39,056 nt of DNA from a virus. The stretch is taken from the IMG/VR virus record IMGVR_UViG_3300032893_000157, positions 1 through 39,056 of that record, one strand, 5' to 3'. Position numbers and translations under genes: made by a program. Below, in pieces: positions 2,127 through 39,056 of this stretch. The notes under the pieces were generated by a model. The model worked only from the letters and a program-made list of their open reading frames with translations, was not told where the DNA came from and made no database searches. Every line of letters begins with the position of its first letter. Position 1 is the first letter of the stretch.

Positions 2127-3191
2127 CTAAGTAGTTGTTACACCAGTTATGACGCCAGATCGCTTTGGATTGCGGTTGACGTAGTTGCCGTAAATGGCTA
2201 TTTGTCGAACATCGCCAAGGCCGTTGACCGGCTTGGCTTCTTTGCTAACTTGCCAAGCAGTTGTAACTACTTCCTCTAACGCACCCTTGGTGACTTCCTC
2301 ACCCATTTGGATGTTGTCACAGTAGGCGATAGAAGAGCTAACAAATTCCAAGTGGTTTTCGTTAAGTGTGTAGACCAGACCGCTTGGGCATTGGTCATCC
2401 TTAACTACAGGGATGCCACGGAAATATTGAGACTCGTAACCAGCCATGCCTACTAGCTGTGCATCGACAGCTACACCCATTGGAGTGTAAGGAGTGACAC
2501 GTAAGTTACCGCGTGAGGTGTCGTAATTACCGCGCGACTTAGCTTCCATCAATTTTTCAATTAATGTCCAGCAAGTCTTAGTAGTTAGAATCAAGTTGGT
2601 TGACTCTAGCTTACTTGCAGCGGCGCTACATAGATCGATCTGAGCGGCTAGCGAGCTGAATGAAATCACACCGCTCGAAGCAGCCGTTACTTGACCGTTA
2701 ATGTAGGTACCATAGGTTGTACGGCTTAAACCACCGTAGCTCGAACTGTAGGTTGCGTTGTCAGTGGACAACTGAAGTCCATCGATAGCGGAGCCTTGAC
2801 CAAGACCGTAGAAGCGAGAACCAGCGGCAGCAATCAAGCTGTTGCGGATAACATCAAACTTCCTTTTAACCAAGTTAATGACCTGTGCTTTGGTCTGGTT
2901 CAAACCAAGTTCGGCGTAACCTATAATTACTGAGTCGCCAAGACCTTTGGCTTCCCATTGCAGATTCACATCTGTCGTGTTGTCTGCTGTATTAAAGTTG
3001 CCAATACCTTGGAAGTCGATAGCTGTAGATACTTCGCTAACCTGAATAGGTTGCTTTTCGTACACACCCATTTCCCAAGGAGTTACCTTACCGGTTGCGC
3101 GTCCAACAAGGACACTCGAACCGTGTACGGCATCTACAACAAAGCTGGCAATGCGCTGTGATGTAGTCGTAATTAGACGGCTATAGTCCAA
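2127..3191 (-). CDS. Major capsid protein (HK97-fold type inferred)
   Basis: 354-aa ORF after portal and scaffold, with typical size and composition. The only start behind the in-frame upstream TAA is TTG at 3191, preceded by GAGGGGAG with a 6-nt spacer. The next in-frame ATG is at codon 41. Confidence 0.7.
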   Translation of the reverse strand: MDYSRLITTTSQRIASFVVDAVHGSSVLVGRATGKVTPWEMGVYEKQPIQVSEVSTAIDFQGIGNFNTADNTTDVNLQWEAKGLGDSVIIGYAELGLNQTKAQVINLVKRKFDVIRNSLIAAAGSRFYGLGQGSAIDGLQLSTDNATYSSSYGGLSRTTYGTYINGQVTAASSGVISFSSLAAQIDLCSAAASKLESTNLILTTKTCWTLIEKLMEAKSRGNYDTSRGNLRVTPYTPMGVAVDAQLVGMAGYESQYFRGIPVVKDDQCPSGLVYTLNENHLEFVSSSIAYCDNIQMGEEVTKGALEEVVTTAWQVSKEAKPVNGLGDVRQIAIYGNYVNRNPKRSGVITGVTTT

Positions 3192-4709: not shown

Positions 4710-6845
4710 CTACTGTTGTGGTGGCAATGCTTGTTGTGCAGACGGTGCTGCTTGTGCCATCGGTGGCGTCGGTGCTAATTCTTGAACTTGATTATTAGGA
4801 TTGATTAAGGTTGAGGTGTTAGTGCCAACGTGAGCCATGCCAGCTTGCATTTCAAGATCATGTAAAGCTGACGGCTGTAAGCCTTGGTTAATTTCCATCT
4901 GAGCTTGAACATCTGGCGGTGCGTCGCGGTAGTTAAAGGTTTCTTTGGCTCGGATTGGCGGCATCATCGTATTCGGGTTGGTTGGCTGCTGATCTTGCAT
5001 TTTAGCCATCTTCAGTTTAGCCTGACCAATAATTTGCTGTATGAAGTTCTGAATATTCTTTTGCTCGTCAGGTTGTAGCATATGATATTTATTAGTTAAT
5101 AGGTAGGCGTTCAAGTGCTTGAGATAGTCATCTTCAATGTCGTCACGCTCAACCGGCTTCTTGCCAGCGATGACGGCTTGCAAGTCTTCTTCAGCTTCAC
5201 GGTTCTGAATATCTTTTTCAGCGTCATCCATAGCACCGAATGGTAATAATTGCTCTTTAACGAATTGCTGGTAAGCTTCTTCAGGATCGTCGAACAGACC
5301 AAGTTCGCGGTAAGCAATTAAGGTTGAAACTTTATTCATTCTCATAAGATCCATAATCGCCATACGCTTTTGCTGGCGGTCAATCGGCAGGCTAGTGCCG
5401 GCTTTGACGTTGATCTTAATGCCTAAGTTCTGAGCGATCTTTGGCTTACTAATAACAATCGAGACAAAGTTACCATCATCACCTTGATAATTAAAGTAAT
5501 GTTCGTCAGTGAAATAACGGTACATCATTTGAGCTTCTAGCTGGTAGAAGCGCGTCATACCGATTTCAATACAGTCAAGTAGATCAGCCTGCCGGCCTTG
5601 GCCTTGGTTCTTTAGAATCAGATCTTGAGTGGCTGTGTTCTGATTAGTGGCGTGGCCTTGCATAACTTGATTAGCGCCCCAAGTGTCCTCAATCGATGCT
5701 TTAAGATCTTGCTTGTCCTCAATAATATAAACTGGCATGTTTTGTTGCTGCCAAACGGTGAAAGCCTTATTAACATCTGGCGTGTCGAGCAGTACGCGTT
5801 GGATCGGCGAAAAGTGAATTTTAGAAACATCTTTTTGGGTAATTGTGCCCTTAGCAAAGATCGGTACACCGGTGCCACCATACTTAGCTGACTCGGCAAT
5901 AACCTGACCGCGCTTGTTGTAGTTCTGCTGCAAGTATTTAGACTGCTCCATAAATGACGTGTGGTCGATATGGCTTGAGCCGTCATTTAATAGATTCCAA
6001 AAGACATACGGCATCATTTGGAATTCGGTTAAGTTCTTGCCGCCTTCATCCCAGTTCGGATCGTCAATCACTCCAAAACAATGATCTTTGTAATGCCAGC
6101 CAACAACTAGCTTTTTCTCGTCCTCAGCGTCAATAAATAGCCAATCTTCTTTAACTGTGTACTGAGTTTCACTCAATGAAACTGGATTATCTGCCACGCC
6201 AAAAAGCTCTAAAATCTTGTCTTTTTGGTCAGGAAACTGCTTAATTAGGTCGCCAGGCGTCTTTTTTAGCTTTTCTGATACATAATCCGGCTCTTCATAG
6301 AGTGTTGAGCGCTTGCCTATTGTCACGGCGTCAGGATTGATATGCTCAAACACAATCGTATCTCTAGCCGCATCGTAGCGCCATTTACCAATCCCTACCC
6401 GTTCACCAACCAATAGATCCTGTACAATCAACCTAATCTTATGCTTAGCGTGCTGATTCTCGGCGTGCATTTGTAAGACGTTCTCAAAGTCTTGCGCGAA
6501 TAGCTTGGACATCATGTCTTTATTAGCCGGCGTAAGCTCTGGTGCGGTGATCTGCTCGGTTACAAACGGCACGATAGTTCTAACAGCGATAAATTGTCGA
6601 TTGTCGGCAAAGACTTCCTGATACCGGTCATCGACTAACTGCTCTTCAACATAGCCGGCTAGATAGTTTTTGCGGTTGTCATCGCGGATAGCTTTTAATC
6701 CACGTTTCTTGTTTGTACTTTTATTAAAAAAGGTTTCGGCTTCGTTATGACGCTTCTTAACGATCTCCAAAAACTCGCTAGGCTCGATTAAATCTGTATA
6801 AATTTGTTCTAAATCTGGTGTCATTGTATATAAAAAGCTCTCCAA
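4710..6845 (-). CDS. Portal protein
   Basis: 711-aa ORF, the first large gene downstream of the terminase and upstream of the scaffold. Assigned by size and position; Pro/Gln-rich C-terminal tail. Confidence 0.65.
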   Translation of the reverse strand: MESFLYTMTPDLEQIYTDLIEPSEFLEIVKKRHNEAETFFNKSTNKKRGLKAIRDDNRKNYLAGYVEEQLVDDRYQEVFADNRQFIAVRTIVPFVTEQITAPELTPANKDMMSKLFAQDFENVLQMHAENQHAKHKIRLIVQDLLVGERVGIGKWRYDAARDTIVFEHINPDAVTIGKRSTLYEEPDYVSEKLKKTPGDLIKQFPDQKDKILELFGVADNPVSLSETQYTVKEDWLFIDAEDEKKLVVGWHYKDHCFGVIDDPNWDEGGKNLTEFQMMPYVFWNLLNDGSSHIDHTSFMEQSKYLQQNYNKRGQVIAESAKYGGTGVPIFAKGTITQKDVSKIHFSPIQRVLLDTPDVNKAFTVWQQQNMPVYIIEDKQDLKASIEDTWGANQVMQGHATNQNTATQDLILKNQGQGRQADLLDCIEIGMTRFYQLEAQMMYRYFTDEHYFNYQGDDGNFVSIVISKPKIAQNLGIKINVKAGTSLPIDRQQKRMAIMDLMRMNKVSTLIAYRELGLFDDPEEAYQQFVKEQLLPFGAMDDAEKDIQNREAEEDLQAVIAGKKPVERDDIEDDYLKHLNAYLLTNKYHMLQPDEQKNIQNFIQQIIGQAKLKMAKMQDQQPTNPNTMMPPIRAKETFNYRDAPPDVQAQMEINQGLQPSALHDLEMQAGMAHVGTNTSTLINPNNQVQELAPTPPMAQAAPSAQQALPPQQ

Positions 6846-6877: not shown

Positions 6878-7204
6878 TCACATCATTGCCTTTCGCAATT
6901 GGTCTGGTGTAAAGAGAGCCTTGGCTTGTTCGGGGTACAATCTAGCGAAGCGAACATTGATTGAGCCATCGGCATTATATGGTTGTTGGATTTCATGCTC
7001 ATGATCCTCAAGATCTATTGTGCGCTGCCAACGAGCATCGCCTGAGCTAGTAATAATCGGTGCAAGTTTATAGCGGCACTCACTACAGATCTTCGGGTAG
7101 TATTTCCCCTGTACCACTAGGCTTGTCACCGCCGGTCGTATCTTGCAAACTTCGCAAGTATTGCTTACGTCTGGCTCGGCCGATACTGACAATTGGTGGC
7201 TCAC
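6878..7204 (-). CDS. Small zinc-ribbon-like protein
   Basis: 108-aa ORF with CEVC...CSEC (two CxxC pairs). GTG start at 7204 with GGAG 9 nt upstream. Overlaps the 7083-7319 ORF by 122 nt in the +1 frame. Confidence 0.5.
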   Translation of the reverse strand: MSHQLSVSAEPDVSNTCEVCKIRPAVTSLVVQGKYYPKICSECRYKLAPIITSSGDARWQRTIDLEDHEHEIQQPYNADGSINVRFARLYPEQAKALFTPDQLRKAMM

Positions 7205-7319
7205 TTATAACGACTCCATCATCTTTATCATACTCTGGCTGAAAGCCTGGCTCCTCGGTATCTGCCTCAACTACCTGAGAATTCTCGTCATCGTCGATCA
7301 GTTCGTCCCACTGTGGCAT
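7083..7319 (-). CDS. Small acidic protein (C-terminal third uncertain)
   Basis: 78-aa ORF with an acidic N-terminus (MPQWDELIDDDENSQVVEADTEEPGF). Its 3' 122 nt overlap the next ORF. Confidence 0.4.
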   Translation of the reverse strand: MPQWDELIDDDENSQVVEADTEEPGFQPEYDKDDGVVISEPPIVSIGRARRKQYLRSLQDTTGGDKPSGTGEILPEDL

Positions 7320-7515
7320 TGTAGCCTTTCACTAGTGGTTTATCTGGTGGCGGTAAGTTTACGCTATAAGTACCTTTAGTAAAGCCATCTACTTCTATTG
7401 TTGCTGTAGAATTGTCAACAATATCTTTTAGGCCATCGTACTTTTCCACCAGTAGTTTATCGATGTCTTGCTCAAGCGCTGAAATACCCAGCCATCGTTT
7501 TAATAGTCTTTTCAT
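7288..7515 (-). CDS. Hypothetical protein (75 aa)
   Basis: ORF whose start overlaps the chaperonin gene stop by 4 nt. Confidence 0.5.
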   Translation of the reverse strand: MKRLLKRWLGISALEQDIDKLLVEKYDGLKDIVDNSTATIEVDGFTKGTYSVNLPPPDKPLVKGYNATVGRTDRR

Positions 7516-9104
7516 GGATCACCGTTTGCCTTATCCCAAGTTGGCCCGTCTTGGTCAATTGGATCAACAATCGCGCCAACAGTCAGGAGTTGACCAGCGG
7601 CACTAACAGCGTTCTCGATTGTTTGAATAACTGCCCTGGTAGCGTCGTAAATGCCAGCTTTTTCTAAATCTATTGGTTCGTCAGTCATAGCTCTAAGATT
7701 AAAGCCAAAACCAGGCTGAGCGTGTTTAATTTGCTCTAAGCGGTAATCAGCTGACTCAGCGGCATTTTCCATTAACTTGCGGAATGTATCTTGTAAAGCG
7801 CCTTTAAACATTGGTGAAATGTCTTGCTGTGAAGCACGAACTAACATCGTGCCACCGCCAGGCAGCACACCATCAGATACTGCACTCTTAGCAGCTTCGA
7901 TTGAATCCTCAACGCGGTAGCGTAACTCTTCCATCTCTACCGGTGTTGAGCCACCAACATTAACAATCGCAATCTTGCCGGTTAGTTTAGAATATCTTTG
8001 CTCTAACTGATCCTTACGGTGTGAGCTGGTTTCAGTTTTCATCAGCTTACGAATAGTGGCTGCACGATCAGTAATGGCTTCAGCTGAGCCAGAGCCTCTG
8101 AATATTACCGCACGATCTTGATTAGCTTGCACGCGTTCAGCGGTACCAAAATACTGAGGATTGAGTTTGCCCTGCTTGTCTAAGACTTCTTTAATATCTT
8201 GAGCAGCCGTAAAAGGTGTACAACCAACGTAAGTCGCGATGTCATCTATAAAGTGAACTGCATCATCACCGTAAGCTGGCGTTGGGATAACGACTGCATT
8301 GAGTTTGCCTTGTAGTACGTTCAACAACAAAGTATTGAGGGCATCGCTGTTCATTTGCACATCACCAACTATAATCAAGTTCTTGTTGTCAGAGTTAATC
8401 ACGCCGGATAGCAGCGGAATAATGTCTGAATTGCTAGCCAGTCGTTTGCTGGTGACAAAGATTTGAGGCTTAGCATACTCAACTTGCTGATTGAGCGCGA
8501 AAAACCCTTTGTCAAAGTAATAACCATTGACCTTCTCAACATCTAGCGTAGGGTAGTTTTGCTCGCGGATCGTAATGCCACCTTCGTTGCCAACCTCTTT
8601 AATCGTATCTGATATAAGAGCGCCGATAGCCGGATCACCAGCGCTAACCGTGGCGACTTCAAGTAGTTTGTCTTTGCCATTTTTACTTTCCTTTTTTAAA
8701 AACTCAATCACTTTTTGACTATCATCCACCAGCTGTTTCTTAATCAACATGCCATTCTCGCCAGCAGCCACTAGTCGATGACCACGTTTGTATAAGTTAT
8801 AGCCTAAGACTACTGTCGCGGTCGTGCCATCACCAGCACTGCGGTTAGTCTTTTCACTAGCTTGACGCAAGATTGCGGCCGCGTTATCCTCTGTGCGATC
8901 CGGCAGCACTACACGTTTAGCCACAGTTACGCCATCGCGCGTAATTGTCGGATCGCCAAAAGGCATACCAAGGATGACATTATTACCGGCTGGCCCAAAG
9001 GTTGAGCCAACTGTCTCGTAGATCTTCTCAGCGCCGGCTAGCACCCTTGCTCTAGCGTCGTCACCATGTAAAATTGTTTTAATTTCTCGCTTAGGTAGAT
9101 CCAT
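7512..9104 (-). CDS. groEL: GroEL-like (Cpn60) chaperonin
   Basis: 530 aa, alignable by eye to bacterial GroEL along its whole length: GPAGNNV, PTITRDGVTVAK, SAGDGTTATVVL, VEDSIEAAKSAVSDGVLPGGG, GIYDATRAV. It lacks the C-terminal GGM repeat tail. Confidence 0.9.
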   Translation of the reverse strand: MDLPKREIKTILHGDDARARVLAGAEKIYETVGSTFGPAGNNVILGMPFGDPTITRDGVTVAKRVVLPDRTEDNAAAILRQASEKTNRSAGDGTTATVVLGYNLYKRGHRLVAAGENGMLIKKQLVDDSQKVIEFLKKESKNGKDKLLEVATVSAGDPAIGALISDTIKEVGNEGGITIREQNYPTLDVEKVNGYYFDKGFFALNQQVEYAKPQIFVTSKRLASNSDIIPLLSGVINSDNKNLIIVGDVQMNSDALNTLLLNVLQGKLNAVVIPTPAYGDDAVHFIDDIATYVGCTPFTAAQDIKEVLDKQGKLNPQYFGTAERVQANQDRAVIFRGSGSAEAITDRAATIRKLMKTETSSHRKDQLEQRYSKLTGKIAIVNVGGSTPVEMEELRYRVEDSIEAAKSAVSDGVLPGGGTMLVRASQQDISPMFKGALQDTFRKLMENAAESADYRLEQIKHAQPGFGFNLRAMTDEPIDLEKAGIYDATRAVIQTIENAVSAAGQLLTVGAIVDPIDQDGPTWDKANGDP

Positions 9105-9355
9105 TATGAAACTGCAACCTCCTCTTTAGGCTCTTCTTTAGGTGGCTCAACTTCTTCAATAATCAGATTGCCATCTTGAATTTCATACTTAGTGTTCTGC
9201 GTGACGGTATAGGCCAACCGTTCAAGCGCAATAAAACTTAGAAAATTAGATAGCTGATTAAAATAACTATCTTGCAAAACTCTGAGCATTTGTTGCTCGA
9301 TTGGTTTTAGGGCAAACTTTTTAACTGACTTGTCGCGGCTTGGTTCTTTACTCAT
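9104..9355 (-). CDS. Hypothetical 83-aa protein between the GroES-like and GroEL-like genes
   Basis: ORF coupled at both ends: ATGA overlap at 9352-9355 and TAATG overlap at 9104. Ends in a Glu/Pro/Lys-rich tail. Confidence 0.55.
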   Translation of the reverse strand: MSKEPSRDKSVKKFALKPIEQQMLRVLQDSYFNQLSNFLSFIALERLAYTVTQNTKYEIQDGNLIIEEVEPPKEEPKEEVAVS

Positions 9356-9681
9356 TTATTATTCTCCGTTACTGATATTAGTCTCCACCATGGTACTAGA
9401 GCATAAGTTTTACCATCCTCAATAAATGTTTGGCCGCCTTCAGCATATTGTTCCCAACGCACTTCTTTGCCAATCAAGGTATCGAGTTCAGCAACTAATT
9501 TCATTATGTCTTCGTCATTAAATCTGAGGCCAGAGCTAGCGGTTAGATGGTATTTATAAACTGAAGCGTCGCGCAAAATACCCGTGCTTTTATCCTCATT
9601 CTCGTCAGCGCGGCTAACGCCATCGTATTCTTTAATAACCTCGATCAAACAATTATTCCCCAGAGGTCGAGTTTTAATCAT
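9352..9681 (-). CDS. Putative GroES/gp31-like co-chaperonin
   Basis: 109 aa. IKTRPLGNNCLIEV resembles GroES IRPLHDRVIVK. A KSTG-containing stretch sits at the mobile-loop position, and IGKEVRWEQYAEGG...YALVPWWRLISV resembles the GroES C-terminal strands. By-eye alignment only. Confidence 0.5.
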   Translation of the reverse strand: MIKTRPLGNNCLIEVIKEYDGVSRADENEDKSTGILRDASVYKYHLTASSGLRFNDEDIMKLVAELDTLIGKEVRWEQYAEGGQTFIEDGKTYALVPWWRLISVTENNK

Positions 9682-10144
9682 TTATTAACTCCAATTTATT
9701 TAGATAAGAAAATTCACCAAACAGCATTTTTGCCGCTTTATTGTATGCTTCAGCGGCTTGGCGTTTAGTTTGGAAATATCCTAAGTGTTTTTGTTTTATT
9801 CGTGCCTGATAAACTCCAAAAGTTTTCTGCCTAGGCACAAACCTGACACCTTTTATTTTAAGTTTACTATCGCAACGAACACCTCTATTAACTCGGTTCT
9901 GATAATCTGTTGCGAACCTGAGATTACTTCGGCGGTTATCCAATTTATCTAAATTTACATGATCTACTTGTTGGCCGGCTATTGGCTTCATTATTTCTCG
10001 GTGCATATATACGGTACTTCTCTTTTTGTTGTTCCTAACAGCGTACCCATAATTATTTAAGCACCACTTATAGCGATACAATGCTTTATAATCTTCATAA
10101 TCAACTATTGCAAATTTGCCTTTAGTTAATTGTATTAGCGGCAT
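9674..10144 (-). mobile_element. Free-standing HNH homing endonuclease with AP2-type DNA-binding domain
   Basis: 156 aa. GKFAIVDYEDYKAL...W...GYA...MHREIM...VDHVNLDKLDNRRSNLRFAT..QN is the HNH_3-type signature. IKGVRF...YQARI...HLGYFQTKRQAAEAYNKAAKMLFGEFSYLN is AP2-like. Confidence 0.8.
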
Positions 10145-10182: not shown

Positions 10183-10436
10183 TCAAACTTCAACTCGGTA
10201 ATACTGTTTACAATAGTGGTTTTTACAACGTGCTTCAAGTACAGCTTGCTCAGCTCGTAGCAAGTCAATTGGCACGCCGCCATCATGAATTGCCACAAAT
10301 TTATCGCTGATGCTCATAAACGGATGGCCGCACTCAATACAATATTGATCACGGTACAACTTGCGGTCAGTTGCCTTATATATAAGAGCGATTGGTAATT
10401 GGTTGTATGGTGTTCTAATTGAGACACTAATTTGCA
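10183..10436 (-). CDS. Small Cys4 zinc-ribbon protein (84 aa)
   Basis: Start moved to the ATG at 10436, which overlaps the TerL stop (ATGCAAATTAG). Contains CIECGHPF...CKNHYC. Confidence 0.5.
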
Positions 10437-11122
10437 TACTCTTCACCAGCGTACAGCACGCCAGCCTCTTTGTACATTTGTCTCGGTTGTATGGTTTCCA
10501 CCACGCCAGAATCGCTATCAGGATTGATCGGCTTCTCGCTCTGATATAACTGCCAAGCACCAGCCAGAGCCATCACTAGATCGTCGTGTGCGCCTTGCTC
10601 AGCTTCAGCCTTACCACTTGGTTTGATAACGAAACTAAACAGCTCATTGACTGTCTGACGGTGGTACAGATGTAATAAACCGCCCTCAATGGCGTCCTTA
10701 AGCTCCTGAAGCATTTTAGGTCGCGTGGCCATTGTTGTGTCCCAACCTAGTTTGCCGGTATCAATCATTCGTCCAGTCGGGTCAATATTCTTCATTGAGT
10801 AAATCCGATAGTCTCCATAACGATTAAGCCTGGCTAGGCGATCCATTTCGTATGAGCCGCCGTTTTGACGTTCAAAGGCCACAATCGGGGCAACACCAGT
10901 TGTTTGAGATATTTTAATCAGCTCTTCATGGATCAGCGGTGTGACAAATGAGCCAGTCACGTTAGCATGGTAAACCTCTGGCACATCTAACCATTTATGG
11001 GATAAGAATTGAGCCGCACAATTATCCTCACCGCCAGCAGCCATATCAACAAAGCAGATAACAAACTCGCCATGCTGCCATTCACGAAATCGTTTGAAGC
11101 TCATGTGTTCGTTCCCAAGCAT
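10427..11122 (-). CDS. terL: Terminase large subunit, C-terminal nuclease part (separate ORF)
   Basis: 231 aa. FVICFVDMAAGGEDN and GAHDDLVMALAGAW match the RNase-H-like terminase nuclease acidic motifs. In the +1 frame relative to 11082-11909, with a 41-nt overlap. Confidence 0.75.
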   Translation of the reverse strand: MLGNEHMSFKRFREWQHGEFVICFVDMAAGGEDNCAAQFLSHKWLDVPEVYHANVTGSFVTPLIHEELIKISQTTGVAPIVAFERQNGGSYEMDRLARLNRYGDYRIYSMKNIDPTGRMIDTGKLGWDTTMATRPKMLQELKDAIEGGLLHLYHRQTVNELFSFVIKPSGKAEAEQGAHDDLVMALAGAWQLYQSEKPINPDSDSGVVETIQPRQMYKEAGVLYAGEEYAN

Positions 11123-11909
11123 CCACTTCTTTTAATAATCTAGCCAGCGCTAAGTTTTCTATATATGTTGAACCGGATGTAATAAAGGCTTCTTCAGGTG
11201 ATTCTGGGTATTCCTGCATGAATAGTCGTTCGCCTAGTTCGCCACGCTTTTTACCCAAAAACTCAGCGTCGTACATTAATGAAGCCGGCAAGAATAACGG
11301 TTTAAAGCCAGTCTTGCCCATAACCGTGTCATCCCAAAATGTTTTGCCTTCGTTAAATCCGTTGGCCGTTGATTCAATCATAACTTTACCGTCCGGTACG
11401 ACTGCTTGAAGCAGCGAAGCTAGTAGTTTTTGGAAGTGTGGATAAAAACAAGCTTCAGATAAGTGAGCATTGGTAATAGTTCGTGACCGGCCAAACTCTA
11501 CATTTTGAGCCGTACCAATAATATATTTAGAGTTTCTAGCTGCGTTGTGTAATTCATACTTGGAATCATATTTTAACGGCACTTTGGTATTTAAAGCGCG
11601 TTCATAGCTAGCGATATACCATTTAACCCGTTCCAGTAATCCCTGAGCGTTATCGGCATTGTCGGCTACAATTACGCTAATTGAGTTTTCCCTGAGTAAA
11701 AAGTCTAAGGCAAAGACAGCTAACATAAATGCTGACACACCTTCTTGTCGAGCCTTGAGTGTAAAATCATGGCCGGTAGCATTTGCCACAATATAGTTTT
11801 GGGCAATGTTTAGTTTAAAGGGTACTTCAGTACCGGTCTTGTCTATGATTGTTAGGCGTTTTTCAATTAGGTTTTTGTACGGTTCATAAATTGAGGGCAT
11901 TTTGATCAT
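11082..11909 (-). CDS. terL: Terminase large subunit, N-terminal ATPase part (separate ORF)
   Basis: 275 aa. LKARQEGVS is a Walker-A variant of the KxRQxGxS type, ITNAHLSE is Walker B, ESTANG is the coupling motif, and MQEYPESPEEAF is present. Confidence 0.8.
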   Translation of the reverse strand: MIKMPSIYEPYKNLIEKRLTIIDKTGTEVPFKLNIAQNYIVANATGHDFTLKARQEGVSAFMLAVFALDFLLRENSISVIVADNADNAQGLLERVKWYIASYERALNTKVPLKYDSKYELHNAARNSKYIIGTAQNVEFGRSRTITNAHLSEACFYPHFQKLLASLLQAVVPDGKVMIESTANGFNEGKTFWDDTVMGKTGFKPLFLPASLMYDAEFLGKKRGELGERLFMQEYPESPEEAFITSGSTYIENLALARLLKEVDAWERTHELQTIS

Positions 11910-12229: not shown

Positions 12230-13396
12230 TCATTCTCTAATCATAGATGTTAATTCTGCCCAATTGTCAGGTAGTTGATTATTGTTTATGAACTTGGCAT
12301 AGCGTTTTCTAATTACGTCTACATATTTAGGGTCTAGCTCCATCATATAACAAGTGCGGTCTAGTTGTTCGCAAGCTATAAGGGTAGAGCCAGAACCACC
12401 GAATAAATCTAAAACTATATCGCCTGATTTGGAGCTATTATTTATTGCCCTCGCCATTAGTGCCAAAGGCTTCATAGTAGGGTGTTCACGACTAGCCGTA
12501 GGGCGGTCTATCTCCCATAATGTAGTTTGAGTTCTGTCACCATAGAATTTATGTGTCCCCTCTTTATTCCAGCCGTAAAGTATAGGTTCATGTTTATAGT
12601 GATAGTCCCCATGACCCATAACTAAGGTATTTTTGGCCCATATTATAGTTGCGGACTGATAACAATACTTTTCAAAAGGTAATAGAAAGTCCTTAAAATT
12701 GTTGCCCGGCGGGCAACAGACATAGAACGCCGCACCAGCTTTTGTGTTTGGTATAAAGTTAGGCAATACTTCGGCCCATATATTTGTGGTCTTATCATTC
12801 TCAATTTTAAGTTTACTTTTTGTTTTGCCCTCATAATCTACACCGTAAGGGGGGTCGGTGAATACCATATCGGCGGCCACGCCATCCATCAAATCACTAA
12901 CTTGCCCAAAATCCGTACTATCTCCACACATAACCCTATGCCGTCCTAATTGATAAATCTCACCTAATTTACTAATAGGTGGTTCGCTAGATACTTCTGG
13001 CGCTTCATCTTCTTCGACTTCGGCTTCTTCTTTAAAACTGTCTGGTAAATCCATGCCCCATGCGTCAAGCTGCTCAGTATCCCACTCGTTAGCTAAGATA
13101 TCCCAATCCCACTCGCCACCAGAAATATTATCTTTAATAATAAATTCACGCTGTTTGTCAAGCGGTAGATCAACTACTTTGACTGGTATCTCTTTCCAAC
13201 CAGCCTCTTGCATAGCCTTGTATCTCATATTGCCACCGAGTATCATGTGATCCTTATTGACTACTACCTCTCTAATCTCAGCCATTTCAGGAAAGTCTTT
13301 TAAGCTTTGGACTAACTTTTTGAATTTGTCATCTTTAATTAGTCGAGGATTATTAGGGTTGGGCTTAATTTTAGTGAGCGGCAAGCGCTGTATCAT
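12230..13396 (-). CDS. ParB-like N-terminal domain fused to a beta-class DNA methyltransferase (N6A or N4C)
   Basis: 388 aa. The N-terminus LPLTKIKPNPNNPR...ILGGNMRYKA is ParB-like. FTDPPYG (motif IV) precedes DLFGGSGSTLIA (motif I). Confidence 0.8.
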   Translation of the reverse strand: MIQRLPLTKIKPNPNNPRLIKDDKFKKLVQSLKDFPEMAEIREVVVNKDHMILGGNMRYKAMQEAGWKEIPVKVVDLPLDKQREFIIKDNISGGEWDWDILANEWDTEQLDAWGMDLPDSFKEEAEVEEDEAPEVSSEPPISKLGEIYQLGRHRVMCGDSTDFGQVSDLMDGVAADMVFTDPPYGVDYEGKTKSKLKIENDKTTNIWAEVLPNFIPNTKAGAAFYVCCPPGNNFKDFLLPFEKYCYQSATIIWAKNTLVMGHGDYHYKHEPILYGWNKEGTHKFYGDRTQTTLWEIDRPTASREHPTMKPLALMARAINNSSKSGDIVLDLFGGSGSTLIACEQLDRTCYMMELDPKYVDVIRKRYAKFINNNQLPDNWAELTSMIRE

Positions 13397-33731: not shown

Positions 33732-34169
33732 TTATTGGGCGCGGTCTACAACGACAGGATCAATCTGAACCGGATCAACCTGTATCACCGCTGGTGTGGC
33801 TGTGGCTGCGCTAGCTATATCATCGGCCGTAATAATACCTTGGTCAACTAAGGCTTGGAAAAGAACAGCCGTATCGCCACTGAACTGGACTGATGGCGGT
33901 GTGGGCGCAACATAATCTGGCCGTGTAAAAGTATCAGTTTGAGCATCATAGGTGCCACCAGTTTCAGCGAAATTATCATCAACCACATCCTCTGGTACAG
34001 CAATTAACGTACAGTCGCCATAAAGATGTGGATTTCCGTCGTTATCGTAAACCTCACCATTTTTCATTAAGCCCCTAGGGTTAGTATCAGGATCGTACCA
34101 AGTGCCATCCCAAACAATTACACTAACGACGTTGCCATCCGAATCTATAACTGCATAATTTTGTTCCAT
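33732..34169 (-). CDS. Hypothetical protein (possible fibre assembly factor)
   Basis: 145 aa immediately after the Gly-rich fibre gene. N-terminus YAVIDSDGNVVSVIVWDG. Positional guess only. Confidence 0.3.
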   Translation of the reverse strand: MEQNYAVIDSDGNVVSVIVWDGTWYDPDTNPRGLMKNGEVYDNDGNPHLYGDCTLIAVPEDVVDDNFAETGGTYDAQTDTFTRPDYVAPTPPSVQFSGDTAVLFQALVDQGIITADDIASAATATPAVIQVDPVQIDPVVVDRAQ

Positions 34170-34170
34170 A

Positions 34171-35646
34171 CTACCTCCAGGTTATAACAAACACTACACC
34201 CTTACCACCATTGCCACCTTTACCCGATGTGCCAGTTGTGCCATTTGTAGTCCCAGCGCCGCCACCGCCGCCGCCACCGCCCCAAGTACCACCGTTGCCG
34301 CCTGCACCACCACCGGTAGTGTTAGCTCCAGGCGTACCAGCCATACCACCTGCACCACCCGAACCGCCAGTGTAAGAACTGGAGTTACTTGTGCCAGAGT
34401 TAGCTCCAGCGGGGCCGGTTGCACCTACTGTAGAGCTAAATTGACCACCGGTTAGGTTATTGGCACCCGTACTTATAGTGTAACCACCAGCATTACCGCC
34501 ATTGCCGCCAGGTGAACTGACATCAGTAACATTACTACTTGTTATGCCGGCACCTCCGCCACCACCACCAGGGCCATTAAGTGTCGATGAACCACTGCCG
34601 TTATCAGCAACACCGCCTACTCCGCCACTACCACCTAAAGCCGACCCTTGCAAATTACCTTCCAGTGTTAGATAACCGTAGTTATTATTACCACCCGCCC
34701 CTCCGATTGCATTGGTACCTGCACCACCTCCTTGACCGCCCGATACAGTCATATACGAACCTACAGTTGTAGAGGCTGGTGAAGCGCCAGCCGCACCGTT
34801 AATGGCTGCACCTGAGCGTGCTGCGCCACCATTACCACCCGCTGGAATCGTTATAGTTATTGTTGAGGTAAGATCAGACGCATCAAACCAAAGAGTTTGA
34901 GCTTGACCTGGCGCACCACCACCACCAGCGCCGCGTAGCGTGTTTACGGCACCTAATCGTCCTGAACCGCCACCGCCGCCAGAACCAAAGACTATAAATA
35001 ACACAGCCTGAGCATTAGCTGGCATAGTCCATGTACCCGACGATGTGAACTTCTGTACGTCTGTTTCTAGTCCAATTGTGGCTGTAGCGGCTGGCAGAGT
35101 CAGCGTACCGGAAGCTGTGTTGTTAGACTTTAGGGTAGTAGCCCCTGAAGTAGAGCCTTGGAAAGCTATTGCACCTGTTAAGGTACCAGCTAAGCCGATG
35201 TTCATGCCGGCAGCGGTAAACCTAGCTACTTCGTTAGCCGTTAAGAGTCCGCCGGCAGCAAATTTAATAACCTTACCTGGCGTACCGGTGGCTATATTGA
35301 TATTGCCAATATTATTACTGCCGCCCGTAAATATGTAAGGATCGTTAGGCGCGAATAAAGTGTTAAAAGGATTGGCATTATTTGACCCGTTTACTCCGAT
35401 ATCGAAGTAGGCTAAAGCATCCGTTGCGCCATTTACCCAGTCAGTGTTCCTATTACCCATCACTATATCGGTACTGGTGTAGGGTCCATTGCCTAGGTTT
35501 TGTACCCAAGGACCAAAGTAGTCGTTGTGCTCATCAGTTAAGCTAAATATATTCTCTATTGAGGTAGAGATAGTAGTCGGACCAATACTAAGACCGCCCA
35601 TCCTGCCGATCGTGGGCTTAAGACCAGGTATAAGCCCATTATTCAT
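34171..35646 (-). CDS. Glycine-rich tail fibre-like protein
   Basis: 491 aa. The C-terminal roughly 290 aa consist of GGxGG-type runs (GGGGGSG, GGNGGAA, GGSGGVGG, GGGGGGGGAG) and end KGVVFVITWR. Confidence 0.5.
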   Translation of the reverse strand: MNNGLIPGLKPTIGRMGGLSIGPTTISTSIENIFSLTDEHNDYFGPWVQNLGNGPYTSTDIVMGNRNTDWVNGATDALAYFDIGVNGSNNANPFNTLFAPNDPYIFTGGSNNIGNINIATGTPGKVIKFAAGGLLTANEVARFTAAGMNIGLAGTLTGAIAFQGSTSGATTLKSNNTASGTLTLPAATATIGLETDVQKFTSSGTWTMPANAQAVLFIVFGSGGGGGSGRLGAVNTLRGAGGGGAPGQAQTLWFDASDLTSTITITIPAGGNGGAARSGAAINGAAGASPASTTVGSYMTVSGGQGGGAGTNAIGGAGGNNNYGYLTLEGNLQGSALGGSGGVGGVADNGSGSSTLNGPGGGGGGAGITSSNVTDVSSPGGNGGNAGGYTISTGANNLTGGQFSSTVGATGPAGANSGTSNSSSYTGGSGGAGGMAGTPGANTTGGGAGGNGGTWGGGGGGGGAGTTNGTTGTSGKGGNGGKGVVFVITWR

Positions 35647-38908: not shown

Positions 38909-38933
38909 GGCGCGGAGGTGGTGCGCCCTTTTT
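38903..38933. terminator. Bidirectional-looking intrinsic terminator after the glycosyltransferase gene (across the circular junction)
   Basis: AAAAAA, then GGCGC-ggaggtggt-GCGCC, then C and TTTTT. GC-rich 5-6 bp stem flanked by an A-run and a T-run. Confidence 0.55.
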
Positions 38934-39056
38934 GCGACTAACTGAGGCCCTTATGACCACACATATTATACCATTAAGCAACAGCATGTCCAATATGTCC
39001 TATCTTGATTGTTGGATTACACCAGATCTCAAAACCGGCTTTATCTGCTTTAATAC
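38930..39056. repeat. Terminal direct repeat, copy 2 (exact copy of 1-127)
   Basis: Identical to the first 127 nt. Carries a duplicate of the 3' end of the glycosyltransferase gene, not a second gene. Confidence 0.9.

Follow-up and report, generated by a model that had tools for sequence, protein, structure and literature searches.

A divergent GroES-type protein and a group I chaperonin, separated by a small conserved gene, in the head-morphogenesis block of a 39-kb phage

Does a phage with a small genome encode a chaperonin complete with its own co-chaperonin and, if so, do all of the genes at the chaperonin locus belong to the same machine? This question is raised by the viral genome IMGVR_UViG_3300032893_000157, of which positions 1 to 39,056 (i.e. 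39,056 nucleotides (nt)) constitute the window analysed here. Three adjacent genes in this window encode a GroES-like protein of 109 amino acids (aa), a protein of 83 aa (hereafter X) and a GroEL-like protein of 530 aa (hereafter Cpn60). In the order of translation, these genes are as follows.

9352-9681, minus strand: 109 aa, Cpn10/GroES-type co-chaperonin (predicted structure, profile-profile and transitive searches)
9104-9355, minus strand: X, 83 aa, conserved, with no family or fold match
7512-9104, minus strand: 530 aa, Cpn60/GroEL homologue by Pfam, PHROG, NCBIfam and PDB sequence matches

The phage probably encodes its own two-component group I chaperonin within a head-assembly operon, with the 109-aa protein as the dedicated lid of Cpn60. 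The Cpn60 family matches and the numbers of homologues of the two small proteins (i.e. 91 for the 109-aa protein and at least 139 for X) indicate that the trio is not a product of chance. Short open reading frames (ORFs) were the only ones on the opposite strand, and none of these was supported. Inspection of the junctions confirmed the translational coupling described in an initial annotation of this DNA. The junction of the 109-aa and 83-aa genes (i.e. AAATGAGT) contains a 4-nt ATGA overlap, that of the 83-aa gene and Cpn60 (i.e. TCATAATGG) contains a TAATG overlap, and a GGAG-type Shine-Dalgarno sequence is located 5' of each of the three starts.

Homology and predicted folds of the Cpn60 and Cpn10-like proteins

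The 530-aa protein was matched by the Pfam model Cpn60_TCP1 (E 6.5e-43; 147.6 bits as compared to a cutoff of 34.3) and by phrog_5725 (chaperonin groEL; 1.9e-111). The NCBIfam GroEL subfamily model NF009487 was passed with 358.4 bits (cutoff 352) and the GroEL equivalog model TIGR02348 was failed with 361.8 bits (cutoff 582.1). The best matches in a search of PDB sequences were cellular GroEL/Hsp60 proteins (2e-84 to 1e-64), with gp146 of phage EL (i.e. 6tmt) reaching only 2.6e-22, and the identity to Salmonella GroEL was ~31%. Sequence motifs characteristic of GroEL (i.e. GDGTTA, VEDS, GGG and GIYDATRAV) were all present and the C-terminus (i.e. ...DPIDQDGPTWDKANGDP) lacked the GGM tail, in agreement with the earlier description of a full-length GroEL homologue devoid of this tail. 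Mapping onto Salmonella GroEL indicated that the ATP-site residues D52, D87, T89, T90, D398, G415, G416 and D495 are retained and that T91 is replaced by Ala. Helix H/I stays hydrophobic (L234I, L237, L259, V263L and V264L) and Y199 is replaced by Phe. The equivalents of GroEL residues 426-434/438-440, including E434, are missing, the placement of this deletion being alignment-dependent. These matches identify the 530-aa protein as a group I chaperonin, though a divergent one. Its residues are those of an active-looking ATPase ring that would retain the groove for lid and substrate and in which allostery and the contacts between rings appear to be remodelled.

Homologues of the 109-aa protein were sought by profile methods. 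A total of 91 close homologues were obtained, all of which are metagenomic and unannotated and many of which are located on contigs of 38-42 kb. Just two of 46 close relatives reached an E value of 0.035 with the Pfam Cpn10 model (PF00166), and a hidden Markov model (HMM) of the close family yielded noise and no Cpn10 when searched against PDB sequences. An exhaustive profile search extended the family to 60 cluster representatives with identities down to ~22%. This wider family was compared by hhalign with ten authentic Cpn10s of bacteria and phages that had been aligned as a reference, and was aligned colinearly over the full length with a probability of 97.1% and an E value of 7.1e-11. The wider profile also matched solved Cpn20/Cpn10 chains (3e-8 to 6e-4), and 24 of 45 wider-family members individually matched the Pfam Cpn10 model, the best with an E value of 1.4e-11. 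A group of giant proteins (i.e. P0107, P0119, P0127, P0130, P0146 and P0161; 1,360-4,046 aa) was rejected as members of the family. The high scores of these proteins were an additive artefact as many identical tandem repeats contribute ~5 bits each.

Structure prediction, which the initial annotation had proposed as a check on both small proteins, produced a Cpn10 fold for the 109-aa protein. With the family alignment as input, AlphaFold yielded a model with a mean predicted local distance difference test score (pLDDT) of 84.3 and a predicted template modelling score (pTM) of 0.77, in which residues 20-26 were the sole low-confidence segment. In a Foldseek search of the PDB with this model, the top 33 matches were all Cpn10/GroES chains (probability 1.00, E values from 3.2e-4), with template modelling (TM) scores to Cpn10 chains of 0.5-0.68, and scores fell sharply to noise after rank 33. 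The resemblance to GroES, initially proposed by eye, is thereby placed on a firmer footing, and the profile comparisons and model together identify the 109-aa protein as a genuine, very divergent Cpn10/GroES.

Having identified the fold, the segments expected to contact Cpn60 were examined. A mobile-loop-like segment spans residues 18-31 (i.e. ..GVSR.D..E) and is shorter than the loop of GroES. The hhalign comparison sets G21-V22-S23-R24 on the G-I-V-L of GroES, the position of the GroEL-binding tripeptide. A 'KSTG' stretch had initially been regarded as mobile-loop-like; this stretch does align with 'KSTRG' of GroES, but at the C-terminal edge of the loop, and the position of the tripeptide is occupied by GVSR. 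Mean column entropy was 1.22 bits in the loop as compared to 1.90 bits in the next strand and 3.14 bits in an extra helix. The segment behaves as expected of a binding loop because it is predicted to be disordered and yet is well conserved. Polar substitutions in the tripeptide have been found in 23% of viral GroES proteins (PMC5649160). The roof of the 109-aa protein consists of a hairpin with an invariant H45-x-T47-A48-S49 motif followed by the extra helix (residues 56-69), which is variable; the GroES counterpart between the barrel halves is a 15-residue roof hairpin.

Linkage of the two genes and the case for a dedicated pair

A member of the Cpn10-like family was found just upstream of Cpn60 in 18 of 18 informative loci. 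These linked loci included 16 clade genomes and two distant lineages (i.e. L030 and L031) that exhibited 26-27% identity, one of which has a GpA-type terminase. TM7 phage DolZOral124_53_65 (MG269973) was also among the loci with a Cpn10-like gene beside Cpn60. Portal-based and Cpn10-based locus searches detected no clade relatives in which part of the trio had been lost.

The most coherent explanation for these data is that the 530-aa Cpn60 would act as an ATP-driven ring and the 109-aa protein as a GroES-type lid, highly divergent and dedicated to this ring. The short, flexible and conserved loop, with GVSR in place of GIVL, would dock the lid on the apical helix H/I groove of Cpn60. In late infection, the pair would most likely fold structural proteins of the phage without recourse to the GroEL/GroES of the host. 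Among possible clients, the 354-aa major head protein is the best candidate, with an estimated mass of ~39 kDa. The size limit commonly cited for the GroEL/GroES cage is ~60 kDa, and hence the major head protein should fit whilst the 711-aa portal is too big to be enclosed. This reading draws on the homology and predicted fold of both partners, the retention of the ATP-site and groove residues, the disordered but conserved loop and the strict co-occurrence of the genes, all of which were established from sequences and models. From these we infer the physical pairing of Cpn60 and Cpn10, their oligomeric state, the client and the independence from the host. A lid is also favoured by the group I-like rather than EL-like character of Cpn60, group I chaperonins being considered to need a co-chaperonin (PMC9598537, introduction).

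Several observations weigh against a dedicated pair. Examination of Pfam with the 109-aa protein found nothing even at E<=10, and PHROG and NCBIfam models also gave no match; this failure of all three sets of models accounts for the missing annotation. The profile searches initially proposed as a check thus recovered Cpn60 with the Cpn60_TCP1 model but missed the 109-aa protein with the Cpn10 model. As the profile of the close family reached a probability of only 56% against Cpn10 in hhalign, the sequence evidence is carried by the bridge through distant relatives. The tripeptide position retains one of three hydrophobic residues. In Cpn60, the equivalents of GroEL 202-208 (i.e. seven residues, including Y203 and F204) are absent and the partners of the R197-E386 and D83-K327 salt bridges are replaced, both of these assignments being alignment-dependent, and the inter-ring residues E461, S463 and V464 are also replaced. 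Due to these apical, salt-bridge and inter-ring changes, the cycle of Cpn60 may differ from that of GroEL. The coupling of the genes is weak evidence for a shared function as gene overlap is general throughout the operon. Lastly, the chaperonins of phages EL, OBP and AR9 function without a co-chaperonin (PMC9598537, PMC7185714).

These lid-less chaperonins are one half of an alternative in which the two proteins act separately, with the 109-aa protein serving the host GroEL and Cpn60 acting alone in the manner of EL gp146, OBP gp246 and AR9 gp228. The other half also has precedents in T4 gp31 and RB49 CocO, which reportedly replace GroES on the host GroEL in phages that have no Cpn60 of their own, and the remodelled allosteric and inter-ring residues of Cpn60 would be compatible with solitary action. 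Separate action is nevertheless improbable. The Cpn10-like family adjoins a phage Cpn60 in every informative locus, across distinct phage lineages, and Cpn60 is much nearer to the co-chaperonin-dependent cellular GroELs than to EL gp146 (2e-84 as compared to 2.6e-22). The change from GIVL to GVSR removes two of three hydrophobic residues and so makes docking on a typical host GroEL less likely, and no T4 gp31 chain was found among the 50 best PDB fold matches of the 109-aa model. The co-occurrence of the genes, a Cpn60 of group I character and the lost hydrophobic tripeptide all favoured the dedicated pair over a gp31-like action. An explanation of a different kind is that the 109-aa protein is a generic small beta-barrel of the GroES-like fold superfamily with no co-chaperonin role, as might be suggested by the unmatched curated Cpn10 models and the moderate TM scores of 0.5-0.68. 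This explanation is very hard to sustain when the significant fold matches consist exclusively of Cpn10 chains, with noise after rank 33, the Cpn10 alignment is colinear and full-length, distant members pass the Pfam Cpn10 model (1.4e-11), a conserved disordered loop occupies the mobile-loop site and the linkage to Cpn60 is constant.

The 83-aa protein X and the surrounding gene block

The initial annotation treated the 83-aa ORF as a gene without an assigned function, and both parts of this description were upheld. At least 139 homologues of X were detected, all of which are 71-106 aa in length, unannotated and characterised by invariant core residues. Each of the 16 clade genomes has X in the interval that separates the Cpn10-like gene from Cpn60. 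The stop codon of X abuts or overlaps the start of Cpn60 in nearly all of these genomes, the exceptions being L020, with a gap of 127 nt between X and Cpn60, and L044, in which a 62-aa ORF intervenes. Between the Cpn10-like gene and X, 0-2 additional ORFs may be present. X was absent from the Cpn10-like and Cpn60 pairs of the other lineages (i.e. L030, L031 and the TM7 phage). X is a real, conserved and clade-restricted gene.

Comparisons with known families and folds did not assign X to a class. A Pfam scan of all 24 X members was empty and no match was obtained for X with PHROGs or NCBIfam, or for the sequence profile of X with the PDB. The AlphaFold model of X was of moderate confidence (pLDDT 74.3, pTM 0.46). 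In this model, a basic and disordered N-terminus is followed by a long helix of hydrophobic character (residues 18-46), a beta-hairpin (residues 55-68) and a Pro/Glu-rich tail. Fold searches with X against the PDB and BFVD returned nothing below an E value of 0.4. MazE and prefoldin beta were at chance level as folds for X, prefoldin beta having an E value of 5.4 and a probability of 0.10. Stretches that look alike by eye (i.e. 'LKPIE' and 'TxFxxEDG') raised the possibility that X is a degenerate Cpn10; hhalign gave this relation a probability of 0.3%. A relation to Cpn60, with X as a fragment, was also rejected by profile comparison with hhalign.

The interpretation of X depends on the genes around the trio. 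As initially described, the trio lies in a head-morphogenesis block between the genes for the large terminase, upstream, and the portal, downstream, with all of these genes on the minus strand. On the 5' side are a small-terminase-like DUF5681 gene, a split large terminase, an 84-aa CxxC protein and an HNH endonuclease; the 3' side contains three small ORFs, a P22-like portal, a 319-aa protein and the major head protein. Genes overlap or run contiguously from the terminase through to the portal. The features outside of the trio are as follows.

12230-13396, minus strand: 388 aa, fusion of a ParB_N domain and an N6/N4 DNA methyltransferase, shortly 5' of the packaging genes
10427-11909, minus strand: large terminase in two overlapping ORFs (phrog_2, 2.1e-12; phrog_24361, 8.6e-13)
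11082-11909, minus strand: terminase ATPase ORF, 275 aa
10427-11122, minus strand: terminase nuclease ORF, 231 aa
10183-10437, minus strand: CxxC...CxxxxC protein, 84 aa (52-57% identity to 84-aa genes of the relatives L005 and L007)
9674-10144, minus strand: HNH endonuclease, 156 aa (Pfam HNH_3, 8.1e-7; phrog_99, 6e-31)
7083-7515, minus strand: two ORFs of 75 aa and 78 aa (the latter acidic), located between Cpn60 and the portal
6878-7204, minus strand: CxxC protein, ~100 aa, directly before the portal (no family match)
4710-6845, minus strand: portal, 711 aa (Pfam P22_portal, 3.6e-7; phrog_156, 3.2e-14)
2127-3191: major head protein, 354 aa (phrog_9953, 3.8e-34)

Examination of the relatives demonstrated that the trio is part of a conserved block of ~8 genes, from terminase to portal, that includes five further small proteins of unknown function. 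The earlier picture of a self-contained three-gene cassette consequently holds for the contiguity of the genes but not for their separateness, as the trio is a subset of this block. The position of X alone is no proof of membership of the chaperonin because the block is conserved and gene overlap is general.

It is quite possible that X is an ordinary accessory of head morphogenesis or packaging, whose location between the chaperonin genes is no more than an inherited gene order. The ~8-gene block holds other small unknowns (i.e. the 84-aa and ~100-aa CxxC proteins and the 75-aa and 78-aa ORFs) and X is specific to the clade rather than to chaperonins; on the other side, X adjoins the start of Cpn60 more tightly than any other small ORF and no genome was found with X apart from the chaperonin genes. 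A single machine made up of all three proteins is somewhat unlikely. As the third component of this machine, X might for example regulate ring closure, or act as a client adaptor or holdase and pass the capsid protein to Cpn60. Presence of X in all 16 clade genomes, tight to the Cpn60 start and with the extra ORFs falling on the Cpn10-like side, fits such a component, and the pTM of 0.46, very hydrophobic helix and disordered tails suggest a need for a partner or oligomerisation. This proposal is opposed by the lack of homology or fold match between X and any chaperone or cofactor, by the related pairs that have no X (i.e. L030, L031 and the TM7 phage) and by the five other small ORFs of the block, which are equally conserved in position in an operon where overlap is general. 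The specific idea that X is a third chaperonin subunit or cofactor, a small helix-hairpin protein produced in step with Cpn60 that recruits or holds the capsid protein or another structural protein for a Cpn60/Cpn10 cage of altered roof and apical surface, making up a self-contained, three-component and client-dedicated system, is unlikely. X, which is co-transcribed with Cpn60 and nearly always coupled to it in translation, may tentatively be viewed as a helper in the folding or assembly pathway of the chaperonin, and could equally be an unrelated head-morphogenesis protein.

Other features of the neighbouring genes were noted. The terminase split is common to the relatives L005, L007 and L027-L029, whilst the more distant L044 has a single 538-aa gene (L044:2787-4403); the split is therefore considered to be derived and conserved. 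The HNH gene sits between the 84-aa CxxC gene and the Cpn10-like gene and overlaps the start of the latter by 8 nt. No HNH gene was found at this site in the other relatives examined (i.e. L005, L007 and L027-L029), which suggests a recent, homing-type insertion. The true start of the 84-aa CxxC gene is an ATG inside a 125-aa ORF that begins at an upstream GTG, and this gene precedes the Cpn10-like gene in relatives. The two CxxC proteins (84 aa and ~100 aa) flank the chaperonin genes, exhibit 48-57% identity in relatives and have no family match. The 75-aa and 78-aa ORFs share an overlap, and there is a further overlap with the gene that follows. The 75-aa ORF is weakly similar to L005_70 (E 1e-4), and the acidic 78-aa ORF resembles, by eye alone, the acidic 65-aa genes of L005 and L007.

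At the level of the whole genome, an exact direct repeat of 127 bp is present at the ends of the window (i.e. 1-127 and 38930-39056). As a terminal repeat of 127 bp is typical of k-mer overlap, the genome is considered to be a complete, circularly closed assembly of ~38.9 kb. A tRNA scan of the window found none. It was not possible to confirm the initial designation of the phage as podovirus-like: its portal resembles that of P22 and no match to a sheath, tube or tape-measure protein was obtained, but most of the structural genes could not be annotated. The region 34001-35000 stands out within the genome, with a G+C content of up to 0.523 and a G/C skew of -0.25, and falls within a tail-fibre-like gene (34171-35646). 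One relative, L027 (JGI 3300020047), is located on a contig of 81,356 bp, ~2x the 38-45 kb usual for the clade, which could reflect concatemers in the assembly or a relative with a larger genome.

Comparison with known phage chaperonins

According to the initial annotation, the known phages have either GroES or GroEL but not both, a statement contradicted by both published surveys and deposited genomes. GroES was found on 133 of 337 GroEL-bearing viral contigs, in either gene order, and polar mobile-loop variants and roof deletions or altered roof regions were described for viral GroES proteins (Marine et al. 2017, ISME J, PMC5649160). Among cultured phages, Flavobacterium phage immuto (MW353176) has an annotated GroES followed by GroEL, and Bacteroides phages SJC03/DAC16-23 have an adjacent pair annotated as hypothetical. 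MW202828 encodes GroEL and then a clear Cpn10. In MW202566, a metagenomic phage of ~39 kb, a sub-threshold Cpn10 ('mhsp60') is directly upstream of GroEL and near to the terminase and portal. Pairs of GroES and GroEL are thus known in phages; the Cpn10-like family, X and the present arrangement were not found described in the sources searched. Searches by tblastn with the 109-aa and 83-aa proteins gave no match in 50,697 phage records or 185,579 reference genomes, and a DNA-level search of the same 50,697 deposited phage records detected no relative of the genome. No biochemical study of a phage GroES/GroEL pair was found in the literature.

Co-chaperonin genes adjacent to GroEL but annotated as hypothetical were also encountered in other deposited phages. 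The gene of Bacteroides phage SJC03_264 (L011:2501-2764) matched with a profile E value of 9.6e-28, and PANI_CDS0109 (L037:4233-4499) of Maribacter phage Panino is an unannotated Cpn10 downstream of GroEL (profile E 2.9e-7). In the TM7 phage, the 100-aa 'hypothetical protein' CQ476_26 (L002:4712-5014) was matched by Cpn10-like family profiles with E values of 4e-7 and 2e-7.

The system in this window shares features with each of the known types of chaperonin and differs from all of them. The TM7 phage is similar in having a circular genome of 38.8 kb in which CQ476_26 overlaps the start of the Cpn60 gene CQ476_27, but has no X, a different genome context and a Cpn60 that is only ~29% identical to the 530-aa protein. 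Operons of the virioplankton and cultured phages likewise combine a group I chaperonin with its own co-chaperonin; their co-chaperonins are, however, recognisable as Cpn10 by BLAST or CDD, whereas the 109-aa protein is invisible to Pfam, NCBIfam and PHROGs. Further differences from these operons are the extra post-roof helix, the intercalated X, the site between terminase and portal and the genome of ~39 kb. Bacterial GroES-GroEL systems resemble the present pair in the lid-first gene order, the predicted folds, the ATP-site residues and the hydrophobic helix H/I groove, and are distinguished from it by the ~31% GroEL identity, deletions, missing GGM tail, GVSR loop and third gene found here. 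As in gp31 and CocO, a phage co-chaperonin of Cpn10 fold, so divergent that it eludes simple recognition by sequence, has a remodelled roof, and folding of the capsid protein may need a tailored cage; unlike these proteins, the 109-aa protein has cellular Cpn10s as its best fold matches and the phage carries its own Cpn60. EL gp146, OBP gp246 and AR9 gp228 are also phage GroEL homologues with modified ring contacts, but these belong to giant phages and are lid-less, whereas the Cpn60 in this window is nearer to cellular GroEL and always has a Cpn10-like gene alongside.

The phage chaperonins characterised in the literature examined (i.e. EL, OBP and AR9) are those lid-less proteins of giant phages, and phage pairs of GroES and GroEL are known only from sequence surveys. 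In the clade described here, a compact chaperonin pair that is probably self-sufficient is encoded by a complete genome of small size. Phages scored as 'GroEL only' may hold lids that are missed by standard models, as in the TM7 phage and Maribacter phage Panino, and surveys of viral chaperonins may undercount lids. The short polar loop, the H-x-T-A-S roof and the extra helix of the lid, together with the deletions in the apical and inter-ring regions of Cpn60, constitute a natural experiment in the remodelling of a chaperonin interface and cage. If X were indeed a cofactor of this pair, it would represent a new class of chaperonin accessory protein.

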